Below, piece by piece: positions 42,001 to 45,000 of a DNA stretch of 64,000 nt. Made by a program: the position numbers. Source of the DNA: an uncultured delta proteobacterium (GTDB taxonomy: Bacteria > Myxococcota > Myxococcia > Myxococcales > Anaeromyxobacteraceae); the NCBI GenBank assembly GCA_963828255.1, contig CAWHDZ010000038.1:37207-101206 (forward strand), read 5' to 3'. Positions within the stretch are counted from its first letter, which is position 1. Every line of letters starts with the position of its first letter.

Positions 42001-45000
42001 CGAGGCCCTTGCGCGGCCGACCGCGGGTGACCGCTCGGATCTCCCCACGAAGCAGCGTTGATCGGGTCGCCTTCGGCCCGGGCCGTCCTAGCCGGCGCGG
42101 GCGCCACTCCGAGCATCGCCTCCGCAGGAGGCGCCGGGCCCCGGCGCTGCTCGGGCCCGGTGTTCCCCGGCGCCATTCACCCACCGTACGCCCTCGCTCC
42201 GAGGACCAGCGATGCGGAGAGTGACGCCCTGGCGCCCGGCGGCACCCGGCCTGCTGGAACGAAGGCGATCAGAGCTTGCCGAACTGCGGCAGCGCGGCGA
42301 TCCGCTGGAGCGCGTCCCCCGGCGCGTCGGCCGGAAACGGCGCCGACGAGCGGCGCAGCCGCGTCAGCCATCGGGCGTCGAGCGGCCGGGACGGCAGCGC
42401 CGGCGGGAGCGTCGCCGCGGTGGTCTCCTCCTTGGGGCCGGAGGCGTCGCCGTGACCGACCGCGAAGCCGGCCAGGAGCAGCGCGGACCGGACGGAGGTG
42501 GCCGTCGAGTAGGTGAAGAGCGCCGCGCCCGGGGCGCAGCGGGCGGCCAGGCAGGCGAAGGCGCCGGCGGTCCAGAGCGGTCCATTCACCTTGGGTGAGA
42601 AGGGGTCCCAGAAGACCACGTCGGCGCGGAGCGGCTCGGCGTCCAGCCGCTCCAGGGCGTCGCCCGGCCGGAGCTCCCAGGTGAGCCCGGGCTCCTCGTG
42701 GCGCCCGTCCCGCAGGAGCGCGCGGGCCGCCTCGGCCTCGTCCGCCGCCCAGCCGAGCCGGCGCACGCCCTCGTCGGAGCAGGCCAGCGCGAGCGCCCCC
42801 AGTTCCCGCTCGAAGCTGACCACCGCGAGCGGACGGCGCCCCGGAGGCGCCACACGGGCGGCCCGGATGGCGGCCCGCGCGTTTCCGGCGGCGCCCAGGC
42901 CGACGTCGAAGAGGACGAGGGCGGGGCCCGGCCCGAGGAGTCGCTCCGCCAGGCGCGACTGGGCCACGTAGAGCCGCTCCGACTCGACCTCCGCGCCGAT
43001 GACCGGGTGCATCACCTCGCCCGCCTCGGCGTCGCGCACCGACGGCGCTCCGCTCGAGGTGGTCACGATCTCGAAGCGGAGGCCCGGCCCGGCCGGGGCA
43101 GGGGAAGCCGGAGGCGCCGGGGGGGCGCGGCGCCCCGGGGCGCGGCCGCTGGCGTCGTGCTCGTGCCGGTCGATGGCGGCCATGGTCTCCCGCATGAACG
43201 AACCGTACCGGCCGGCCTCGATGGCGGCGCGGGCGGAGCGCATCAGCGTGAGGTAGTGGTGCAGGTTGTGGATGGAGAGGAGGCGCGGGCCCAGCGGCTC
43301 CCGGCACTTCATCAGGTGATGCAGGTAGCCGCGGTCGTGCCGCTGGCAGGTGGAGCAGCCGCAGGCGGGATCGAGCGGAGCGCCGGAGAGCTTGTGCTCC
43401 GACCGGGTGAGCCGGACCCGTCCACTCCCGGTGAATGCCGTTCCCTGCCAGGCCAGCGTGGTGGGGATGATGCAGTCGAACATGTCCACGCCGTGGGCGA
43501 TGGCCTCGAGCAGGTCGGGCGGCGTGCCCACCCCCATGAGGTAGCGGGGCCGGTCGGGGGGAAGGAGCCCTGCGGCGAGCCCGACCACGTCGAACCGCTC
43601 GGTCCGGGTGTCGCCCACCGCCAGGCCCCCGATGGCGAAGCCGTCGAAGGGGTGCTGGGAGAGGAACCCGGCCGACTCGGCCCGCATCGCAGGGGAGAGC
43701 CCTCCCTGCACGATGGCGAAGAGGGCCTGCTCGCCGTTGCTCCGGGCGGCCAGGCTGCGCAGCGCCCAGCGGTGGGTCCGCTCCATCGCGGCCCGGACCT
43801 CGCTTTCACCCGCGGTCGATGGCAGGCAGATGTCGAGCACCATCATCACGTCGGAGCCGATGGCCTCCTGCATGGCGATGGACGACTCGGGCGTGAGCAG
43901 CTGGTAGCTGCAGTCCACGTAGCTCTGGAAGCGCGCGCCCACCTCGGTGATGGTCCGCTCGGCGGGGAGCGAGAAGATCTGGAAGCCGCCCGAGTCGGTG
44001 AGGATGGGCCCGTCCCAGCCCATGAAGCGGTGCAGCCCACCCAGCTTCCGCATCGCGTCCAGGCCCGGGCGAAGCAGCAGGTGGTAGGTGTTGGCGAGGA
44101 CGATCCCCACCCCCAGCGACCGGAGGTCGTCCGGCGTGAGCCCGGTCACCGACCCGCGGGTCCCCACCGGCATGAACGCAGGCGTCTCCACCCTGCCGTG
44201 CGGCGTGGTGAAGGCGCCGCGGCGGGCTGCGGTCTCGCAGTCGCGGACCCCGGGCGTGAAGTGGAACGGCATGCGTCAGGCCACCGTCACCTTCTTCACG
44301 CCGCGCTTCTCGAGCCAGGCCCCCACCCGCTCCCGCGTGTCGCCCTGGAGCACCAAGGCCGTCCCCTCGACGACCCCGCCACAGCCGAGACCACGCTTCA
44401 GCTCCCCCAGCCACGTCTCGAGCTCCGCCGCCCGCAGCTCCAGCTTCTCCACCACGGTCACCGTCCTGCCACCTCTCCCCGCCCGCTCCATGCGCACCAC
44501 CGCGCGTGCCGGCGGAAACCTCCCAGACGCCTTCGCCGCCGCAGCAACTTCCCGTCCCCCCGGCGCAGCCGGGCCAGGCGCCGCCGACACCTCGCCCATC
44601 CGCGCCGCCAGCCTCGCCAGCCCCGCGTTGAACGGCGCGACCGGAGCCACGGGCATCACTTTCTCCTTCTTCCCCATCCGGCGCGGATGATGCCACGTCC
44701 CCCCGCGAACGGGGCCCGGATCTCCCCACGAGGCACGCACGACCGGGTCGCCTTCGGCCCGGGCCGTCCCAGCCGGCGCGGGCGTCCCTCGCAGCGGCGC
44801 CTCCGCAACGGGCGTCGGGAACCGGCGATGCTCTGGCCCGGCGTGACCCGACGCCATTCACTCTAGGTACGCCCTCCCCGTGAGGACAAGCGCCGCGGAG
44901 AGGGATGCCCAGGCGCCGGCGGCAGCCGTCCTGCTGGAACGAAGGCGCTCACGGTCGCCAGCCGTGCGCGATGGGCAACCGCCGCCCCTCCCCGAACGCC

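Follow-up and report, generated by a model that had tools for sequence, protein, structure and literature searches.

Within the 64,000-nt window that we analyzed, a stretch of the genome of an uncultured member of the Anaeromyxobacteraceae, a single gene on the minus strand (positions 42269 to 44272) encodes a 667-aa protein in which a second tRNA-guanine transglycosylase (Tgt2) is fused to a methyltransferase of the MnmC2/MnmD fold. The probable product of the pair is an as yet undescribed methylated base in RNA. Our best explanation, to which we assign an even chance, is that preQ1 would be inserted at a guanine ignored by the ordinary Tgt and would then be N-methylated. The catalytic machinery of both domains is intact, Tgt2 has a preQ1-type pocket, and each domain belongs to a separate clade. 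Furthermore, the two are strictly coinherited, and the host supplies preQ1 while lacking MnmEG. On a bolder and less probable reading, in which the target is G34 of non-GUN tRNAs, the pair would break the rule that confines bacterial tRNA deazaguanines to GUN anticodons. More than one-third of the genomes sampled from the phylum carry the pair, which is misannotated as a plain Tgt.

The gene is one open reading frame with no internal stop, and both of its domains were matched by profiles, which bears out the fusion described in the first-pass annotation. Residues 1 to 370 (43163 to 44272, minus strand) form the Tgt2 domain, as assigned by profile match, alignment to Zymomonas mobilis Tgt, and Foldseek. 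A Pro/Ala-rich linker of about residues 371 to 397 (43082 to 43162, minus strand) is disordered in the AlphaFold model and varies in length among relatives. The methyltransferase domain (residues 398 to 667; 42272 to 43081, minus strand) carries E488, D556-P-F-S-P, Y588, and K614. The AlphaFold model of the whole protein had a mean pLDDT of 90.7 and a pTM of 0.61. Because most of the 120 best matches to the fusion were full-length proteins with both Pfam domains, it is not a frameshift artefact. Its GC3 (0.946) is native when compared with pyrH (0.954) and the ordinary tgt (0.968). Directly upstream, a yciH/SUI1 gene (44276 to 44677, minus strand) has its stop 3 nt before the start of the fusion. 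The two genes likely share a transcript in this host. Contigs from two metatranscriptome runs (shares of 0.19 and 0.10) covered pieces of the gene, one of them spanning yciH to tgt2; these runs may include DNA and were not counted as expression. An Rfam search and a promoter scan gave no match. Among the 80 loci that we surveyed, yciH/SUI1 was near the gene in 12 and immediately preceded it in the same orientation in 5; it is not a conserved partner.

Tgt2 belongs with the bacterial enzymes. Residues 14 to 369 scored 430.1 bits on TIGR00430, above the cut-off of 306.75, and the score on TIGR00432, the archaeal TgtA profile (G15, preQ0), was 134.8 bits, below its cut-off of 350. The Tgt2 model superimposed on Z. 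mobilis Tgt with a TM-score of 0.96 by target and an rmsd of 1.3 (Foldseek). Bacterial Tgts (EC 2.4.2.29; Z. mobilis 1Q2R, Escherichia coli 10FB, and Thermotoga maritima 2ASH) share this fold (TM-scores of 0.95 to 0.96 by target) and are 43 to 50% identical to Tgt2. Common to both, in Z. mobilis numbering with the Tgt2 residue in parentheses, are the catalytic D102 (D93) and D280 (D266); D156 (D147), Q203 (Q189), and G230 (G216), which face the guanine; C158 (C149) and V233 (V219) of the preQ1 pocket; the U33-side D267 (D253); and the Zn site C304/C306/C309/H335. The alignment thus agreed with the first-pass annotation that the catalytic, preQ1-pocket, and Zn residues are intact. In all 50 fused sequences, D93, D147, C149, Q189, G216, D253, D266, and the Zn ligands were invariant. 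Since this set includes the guanine-reading residues, we rejected an exchange of U34 or a pyrimidine by Tgt2. The pocket cysteine (C158/C145) selects preQ1; its Ala/Ser mutants have a Km that is 868- and 2460-fold higher (PMC3074131). The basic residues with which E. coli Tgt binds the tRNA stem (K285, K292, and R320; PMC13416341) correspond to R287, K294, and K322 in Tgt2. They vary across the Tgt2 family, with D, H, or S at the K285 position in several members.

In contrast to bacterial Tgt, Tgt2 is a second copy that is not beside queA, forms one clade of its own (support, 0.999), and is fused or linked to a methyltransferase. It also carries substitutions in residues that deal with the anticodon and with preQ1. 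K52 is replaced by T43 (44144 to 44146, minus strand), and R286-x-x-R289 is replaced by T272-L-A-W275 (43448 to 43459, minus strand), all as first reported. We found two further replacements, E235 by D221 (43610 to 43612, minus strand) and A48 by R39. We take R286 and R289 to be contacts that read U35, a point on which our literature searches returned no passage. Among 50%-cluster representatives (n = 150, less 10 rows without the D280 motif), none of 29 fused Tgts had R286 and 1 had R289, while 97 of 111 unfused Tgts had both. By these alignments, loss of R286/R289 is the trait of the Tgt2 family as a whole. Trp at 289, which had been credited to 80 of 80 loci, turned out to mark one subtype and not the family. 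It occurred in 67 of 71 scorable loci of the host's subtype, after 9 of the 80 were set aside because they were truncated or frameshifted or had no Tgt2. This subtype also has T at position 52 (69/71) and D at position 235 (71/71); a sister subtype has Q289 and keeps both K/R52 and E235. Entry of preQ1 depends on the L231/A232 peptide switch, which E235 holds; in the W289 subtype, E235D could weaken that switch. The role of K52 is documented: it contacts U35 and forms part of a dimer salt bridge, and K52M in Z. mobilis Tgt lowers turnover more than tenfold (bioRxiv 10.1101/2020.09.01.277731). The replacements could therefore mean low activity instead of a new target.

The host has a complete queuosine pathway. 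Its ordinary Tgt (G000:C15:171699-172823) lies beside queA and has K52/E235/R286/R289, and QueG is present. The genome's source of preQ1 is the preQ1 synthase gene queF (63578 to 63970, minus strand), which is in the window and unlinked to the fusion. Searches of the host genome for MnmE and MnmG returned nothing over the cut-off, and the two copies of the origin region both have rsmG immediately after yidC; the host has cleanly lost mnmE and mnmG. MnmG was likewise found in none of the 14 other genomes of the host's family, and searches of the host for MnmM, MnmL, and Elp3 found none. With mnmE and mnmG lost, the methyltransferase has no canonical substrate in this organism. This makes the host a clean test case, because the ordinary explanation of the methyltransferase is removed.

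We propose that Tgt2 would bind a stem-loop in RNA (the anticodon arm of a tRNA is the likeliest), excise a guanine via the usual D280 covalent intermediate, and insert preQ1 from the host's QueC/QueF. With K52, R286, and R289 replaced, it would no longer require a U at +1 and would act on a guanine left alone by the ordinary Tgt, with G34 of a GNN, non-GUN tRNA as our best guess. Using SAM and D556, the tethered MnmC2-fold domain would then N-methylate the inserted aminomethyl group by the chemistry of MnmC2 on nm5U34. The product, 7-(methylaminomethyl)-7-deazaguanosine, would be a minimal analogue of queuosine with a secondary amine. We infer that preQ1 is the base and its amine the one methylated, as well as the order of the steps and the target.

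Alternatively, the same product could be made at the canonical site. Tgt2 would load preQ1 at G34 of GUN tRNAs, or the methyltransferase would cap the preQ1 of either Tgt, or free preQ1 would be methylated before insertion, making N-methyl-preQ1 a conditional alternative to queuosine. The conserved pocket, D253, and stem-binding residues are consistent with this possibility, as are the K/R52 retained by the Q289 subtype and the fact that MnmC2 enzymes act at tRNA position 34. However, the near-complete split of R286/R289 between ordinary and fused Tgts argues against it. In addition, hosts keep the ordinary Tgt along with QueA (59 of 60 carriers) and, in the present case, QueG, so GUN tRNAs are already served. 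We regard a canonical site as unlikely.

The methyltransferase domain resembles MnmC2/MnmD (tRNA nm5(s2)U34 N-methyltransferase; 3VYW and the N-domain of E. coli MnmC) in fold and motif I. It was the sole PF05430 match in the host genome (66.6 bits; cut-off, 22). Aquifex DUF752 (3vyw), to which the C-terminal half had been matched at an E value of 9e-16, was recovered at 1e-15 and was also the closest structure (Z = 27.4; rmsd of 3.0 over 240). Shared residues include E101 (E488 in the fusion), N72 (N464), D156 (D538), the catalytic D178 in D-x-F-x-P (D178/F180/P182 = D556/F558/P560), Y225/F210 (Y588), and K236 (K614). Conservation across the family was high, with D556, G458, G460, and N464 in 106 of 106 sequences and Y588 and P560 in 105 each. 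Nevertheless, residues 416 to 621 scored 69.8 bits on the MnmC2 profile NF033855, below its cut-off of 136. The family forms its own clade (SH-aLRT, 95), has E-x-M-H in place of the E-x-Y-H-S of Aquifex MnmC2, and is inherited with Tgt2, not with MnmEG, in a host that lacks the known nm5U route.

Coupling of the two domains was stronger than the first-pass annotation had indicated. The methyltransferase family occurred in 60 of 161 genomes of the phylum; all 60 carriers had a second Tgt (at least two Tgt matches), while the family was found in 0 of 93 single-Tgt genomes, counts in which related genomes are not independent. QueF, like QueA, was present in 59 of the 60. Of 391 loci that the methyltransferase alignment retrieved, we kept 80. 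The two genes were fused in 46 and adjacent in 28, Tgt2 was 6.6 kb away in 1, and none was seen in 5, 3 of which had less than 90 nt of room. An earlier, separate search had given 26 fused, 46 adjacent, and 8 with none. The pair had been described as myxobacterial, but it is not confined to that group. Some of the 80 loci are labelled Planctomycetota, and the Atlas clusters of the family are commonest in Verrucomicrobiota and Spirochaetota. The spread of the family is patchy, and it was likely transferred into Planctomycetota.

It is also conceivable that the protein combines two independent activities, with nothing more than a tRNA-modification cluster linking a housekeeping MnmC2 (nm5s2U to mnm5s2U) to the Tgt paralogue. 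MnmC2 is the nearest relative in structure and sequence, and MnmG is kept in 39 of the 60 carriers. Four MnmG-bearing f2 genomes that we tested lacked MnmM and MnmL and had a family member as their only MnmC2-like match, so the methyltransferase may also be an nm5s2U methylase there, a counterpoint to the two-step scheme. Two archaeal controls had MnmC2-like genes without MnmG, and another source of nm5U is therefore possible. One sentence of Jaroch et al. (bioRxiv 10.1101/2023.12.21.572861) names fusions of the same two domains (COG0343/PF01702 with MnmC2), classing them among MnmC2 fusions. Yet the methyltransferase motifs are intact in the 21 of 60 carriers without MnmG and in 35 of 40 further carrier genomes that also lack it. 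The family never occurs without a second Tgt, and 64 MnmG-bearing genomes had no match to it at all; 10 others with only weak MnmC2-like matches all have MnmG. Given these patterns and the separate clade and motif, two independent activities seem improbable. We rejected the pair as a substitute for MnmEG, as MnmG persists in 39 of the 60 carriers and the pair is missing from 27 of 48 genomes without MnmG. In the passages of Jaroch et al. that concern the fusions, function is neither proposed nor tested. Their survey covered only genomes with MnmA, MnmG, and MnmE, so hosts like the present one fall outside it. To call the route undescribed is subject to the qualification that such fusions had been listed.

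It is doubtful that the pair modifies DNA or a small molecule instead of RNA, whether to make a defence mark of the Dpd kind or a deazapurine metabolite with a methyl group. Phage DpdA and DpdM place 7-(methylamino)methyl-7-deazaguanine, the base that we propose for RNA, in DNA, with a transglycosylase that inserts preQ1 and a second enzyme that N-methylates it (bioRxiv 10.1101/2023.04.13.536721). Retargeting of Tgt paralogues to DNA is documented (PMC5699537), and the patchy spread with its likely transfer would fit such a role. However, Tgt2 falls in the bacterial Tgt clade and over the TIGR00430 cut-off, DpdA being a different subgroup, and the Rossmann-fold domain of the fusion has no relation to DpdM, a metal protein of the DUF3109 type that is rich in cysteine. 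The 80 loci had no recurring third partner gene, dpdB/dpdC and glycosyltransferases included, and only lineage synteny. PADLOC gave no defence match, searches of viral contigs, phages, and plasmids did not turn up the methyltransferase, and the gene has native GC3. A mobile or defence element was rejected on the same searches. The 240-nt repeat that flanks the fusion gene is dispersed and is not a cargo border.

Least probable of all is that Tgt2 is a QTRT2-like accessory subunit, dimerising with the ordinary Tgt or only binding tRNA to deliver the methyltransferase: K52, which takes part in the dimer salt bridge, is replaced and an ordinary Tgt is almost always present (38 of 40 in one set; 60 of 60 carriers), but QTRT2 has lost its active-site aspartate, while D93, D147, D266, and the preQ1 pocket are invariant in Tgt2.

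Returning to the insertion and N-methylation of preQ1 in RNA, our analysis predicts both a modified nucleoside and a Tgt target, and literature searches found no paper on either the predicted nucleoside or the changed target. More specifically, and only tentatively, 7-(methylaminomethyl)-7-deazaguanosine may be a new wobble nucleoside at G34 of tRNAs outside the four GUN species. A purine at 35 would fit with a smaller residue at 286 and with Gln or Trp at 289, which would point to GAN anticodons such as those of tRNA-Phe(GAA) and tRNA-Ile(GAU). The formula of the predicted nucleoside equals that of trimethylated guanosines such as m2,2Gm (MH+ 326.146). Surveys by mass spectrometry could therefore have assigned it wrongly. 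Tools for RNA labelling could also naturally be developed from a Tgt whose loop specificity has changed. Last, the W289/D235 subtype may be adapted to hosts in which MnmEG was lost. A convergent switch to W289 upon loss of MnmG was not seen: K-M-A-Q-Q is retained in the three f2 genomes that lack MnmG and have a readable motif.

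The fusion gene occupies positions 42269 to 44272 on the minus strand as a single open frame encoding 667 amino acids. Residues 14 to 369 match the bacterial Tgt family TIGR00430 (430.1 bits against a cutoff of 306.75), and residues 416 to 621 match MnmC2 at 69.8 bits, below the equivalog cutoff of 136; this methyltransferase half exceeds the Pfam cutoff for PF05430. The AlphaFold model of the fusion (pLDDT 90.7) has two folded domains joined by a linker (371 to 396) that is disordered, and the modeled Tgt domain superposes on Zymomonas mobilis Tgt with an rmsd of 1.3. When the methyltransferase domain was modeled alone (pLDDT 96.8), structural ranking placed Aquifex MnmC2 (3vyw, Z 27.4) first and Escherichia coli MnmC second, with the remaining methyltransferase structures far lower (Z of 18 or less). 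The GC3 of the gene is native. Named Anaeromyxobacter proteins and contigs are among its close relatives, which makes the Anaeromyxobacteraceae the most likely family of the host. The fusion is real and conserved, and by the features tested it is neither an ordinary Tgt nor an ordinary MnmC2.

The first-pass annotation had listed retained catalytic and preQ1-pocket residues and replaced anticodon contacts in the Tgt half (Tgt2), all of which proved correct in alignment with Z. mobilis Tgt, whose numbering we use. Two further changes are E235 to D and A48 to R. D267 is retained, and threonine replaces K264 in both Tgt2 and the ordinary Tgt of the host. Across 50 fused sequences there is no variation in the catalytic aspartates, D156, C158, Q203, G230, D267, or the zinc cysteines. 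C158 (E. coli C145) is described as the preQ1 selector, with Km raised 868-fold by Ala and 2460-fold by Ser (PMC3074131). E235 is reported to hold a peptide switch that differs between the guanine- and preQ1-bound states (PMC3660597), and K52 both to contact uracil 35 and to form a salt bridge with E339 across the dimer (bioRxiv 10.1101/2020.09.01.277731). Binding of the tRNA stem in E. coli requires K285, K292, and R320 (PMC13416341). These align with R287, K294, and K322 in Tgt2, less regularly among distant members.

Key residues described for MnmC2 are E101, N72, D156, and D178-x-F180-x-P182, together with the substrate-stacking Y225 and the RNA-binding K236 (PMC3648344 and PMC3527978). 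In the fusion, the first three correspond to E488, N464, and D538, the motif to D556, F558, and P560, and the last two to Y588 and K614; D556 and N464 are kept in 106 of 106 alignment rows. The Tgt2-linked methyltransferases group in a clade of their own (41 rows, SH-aLRT 95), outside which fall E. coli MnmC2 and 11 Planctomycetota homologues with no Tgt within 1.5 kb. They have E-x-M-H, whereas Aquifex MnmC2 has E-x-Y-H-S.

We take R286 and R289 to be the residues that read U35, following the 1Q2R work. Among the 150 best 50%-cluster representatives, 10 of them without a readable D280 motif, R286 occurred in 0/29 and R289 in 1/29 methyltransferase-fused proteins, and both were present in 97 of 111 unfused Tgt proteins. 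A phylogeny of 148 Tgt domains placed the methyltransferase-linked ones in a single clade (44 tips, support 0.999), together with nine unfused proteins in which at least one of the two arginines is missing. The host's subtype is defined by T52, W289, and D235 (69, 67, and 71 of 71 scorable loci, respectively), with R286 in 4 of 71. The other subtype, which covers family f2 (same order) and most of the distant representatives, combines K or R at 52 with Q289, E235, and a small or polar side chain at 286. Because of this Q289, the earlier count of W289 in 80 of 80 loci is an effect of the query; W289 marks only the host's subtype and fails as a family trait. The family-wide trait is the loss of the R286 and R289 arginines. 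The description of the pair as myxobacterial did not stand, as two loci are labeled Planctomycetota; these nest within the Anaeromyxobacteraceae in the tree. Atlas clusters at 0.97 to 0.98 were commonest in Myxococcota, Verrucomicrobiota, and Spirochaetota, with few members having a record. One genome, G113 (loci L125, L128, and L129), has three Tgt2 copies and an ordinary Tgt, and the methyltransferase was found with just one of the three. Outside the Tgt2 clade, the Tgt-like representative P0230 has a remodeled pocket (W at 106, D at 233) and neither arginine, and is perhaps another uncharacterized paralogue.

In a phylum sample of 161 genomes (at least 90% complete by filter), the methyltransferase family, called at E below 1e-40, was found in 60 genomes, all 60 with two or more Tgt matches, and in 0 of 93 single-Tgt genomes; these counts come from kin, which overstates their independence, and the first-pass genome search scores only part of the candidates per genome. 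Four genomes had two Tgt matches and no methyltransferase family: in two (G091 and G151), Tgt2 is close to the end of its contig, and in two (G020 and G066), the matches are apparently one split gene. QueF and QueA were present in 59 of the 60 carriers, both missing from G011 (92% complete). MnmG was absent from 21 of the 60 and present in 10 of 10 genomes having only weak MnmC2-like matches. In genus g11, the two genes lie 11 to 16 kb apart and both are retained. The 80 named loci, the best 80 of 391, comprise 46 fused and 28 adjacent pairs; 40 of their genomes, of unstated completeness, include 38 with two or more Tgt matches and 5 with MnmG. A search around these loci for a third recurring partner gene found only local synteny. 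Within the 161-genome sample, MnmG went unfound in whole families (f1, 0/14; f12, 2/17; f3, 0/4; f5, 0/3; f7 is also named), marking the repeated loss of a wobble-uridine pathway that is normally conserved. One MnmG-less f12 genome encodes an Elp3 over the TIGR01211 cutoff (G093:C1:2710015-2711505), a possible alternative U34 route.

The host keeps an ordinary tgt, adjoining queA on a separate contig, as well as queC, queG, mnmA, and, inside the window, queF (63578 to 63970, minus strand); its tRNA genes cover all four GUN anticodons. Neither MnmE nor MnmG had a host match over cutoff, MnmG queries from two relatives found no match, and MnmE from one relative found just a short GTPase match. 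The dnaA-yidC-rsmG-parAB-atp region occurs twice in diverged copies (C6:20000-36000 and C10:17000-30000), so two strains or species are mixed in the assembly (contamination 6.6%). In neither copy is mnmE or mnmG present, and rsmG comes directly after yidC, about 780 nt on. Host searches for MnmM, MnmL/YtqA, and Elp3 found none either, and the fusion is the sole PF05430 match; the methyltransferase is therefore without an nm5U34 substrate by known bacterial routes. A second mnmA-like gene in two frames (C11:248474-249518), besides the intact mnmA on C1, reflects either a frameshift or a second strain. The genome also has a gene for tRNA-Arg(TCG) (C3:34130-34206) in addition to those for tRNA-Arg(ACG) and tRNA-Arg(CCG); tRNA-Gln(TTG) is encoded three times, at other sites.

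A tentative lead concerns residue 289, which could be read in 37 of those 40 genomes of named loci. It is W in 32 of 32 genomes without MnmG; in the five that have MnmG it is F twice and S, R, and W once each. When the contact columns were left out of the tree, the two lineages with MnmG that were placed (the Planctomycetota pair, and L101 with L112) fell inside the W clade, so W289 was lost twice; L102 is the exception. Since each loss accompanies a switch to another host lineage, and the Q-type Tgt2 genes of f2 genomes without MnmG have not shifted at residue 289, the pattern may reflect adaptation to the host and not a connection with MnmEG.

A single sentence of Jaroch et al. names TGT as one of the partners in MnmC2 fusions, within a genome set limited to MnmAGE genomes (bioRxiv 10.1101/2023.12.21.572861). 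Our literature searches, whose coverage mostly excluded subscription journals, found no study of a TGT-MnmC2 fusion (which the Jaroch supplements may detail), none of another bacterial Tgt paired with a methyltransferase, and none of methyl-preQ1 in tRNA. Within that coverage, the fusion combines two known kinds of enzyme and is already catalogued and unstudied.

The simplest account, to which we give an even chance, is a two-step writer of the kind first proposed, with preQ1 insertion at a non-GUN target followed by N-methylation. Tgt2 would replace a guanine of an RNA loop with preQ1, after which the attached methyltransferase would methylate the inserted primary amine, much as MnmC2 acts on the aminomethyl group of nm5U34. 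The predicted product is 7-(methylaminomethyl)-7-deazaguanosine (computed MH+ 326.146, base 194.104); the same base is reported in the DNA of phages, where the unrelated DpdM produces it (bioRxiv 10.1101/2023.04.13.536721). Ordinary Tgt requires U33-G34-U35 (PMC4425180). That enzyme and QueA are both retained and the position-35 contacts are gone from Tgt2, which favors a non-GUN target over a duplicate role; the same chemistry at GUN tRNAs seems unlikely. Counting against the two-step writer, E235D and K52T could lower Tgt2 activity, and PF05430 occurs without MnmG in two archaeal controls. No other nm5U methylase was found in the four MnmG-bearing f2 genomes tested, so a double role of the methyltransferase is possible; that it is simply an independent housekeeping MnmC2 we consider improbable. 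A DNA or metabolite target is very improbable, and an accessory-subunit role for Tgt2 scarcely credible.

The locus also carries an intergenic repeat, about 240 nt long and dispersed in the genome, without a match in an Rfam search. Its two copies here (42033 to 42271 and 44714 to 44951) are 80% alike and begin at the stop codons of the fusion gene and nadE. Folding is modest (z = -1.9). About 19 copies of at least 150 nt occur genome-wide, some as inverted pairs, and the repeat is also present in the loci of four close relatives.
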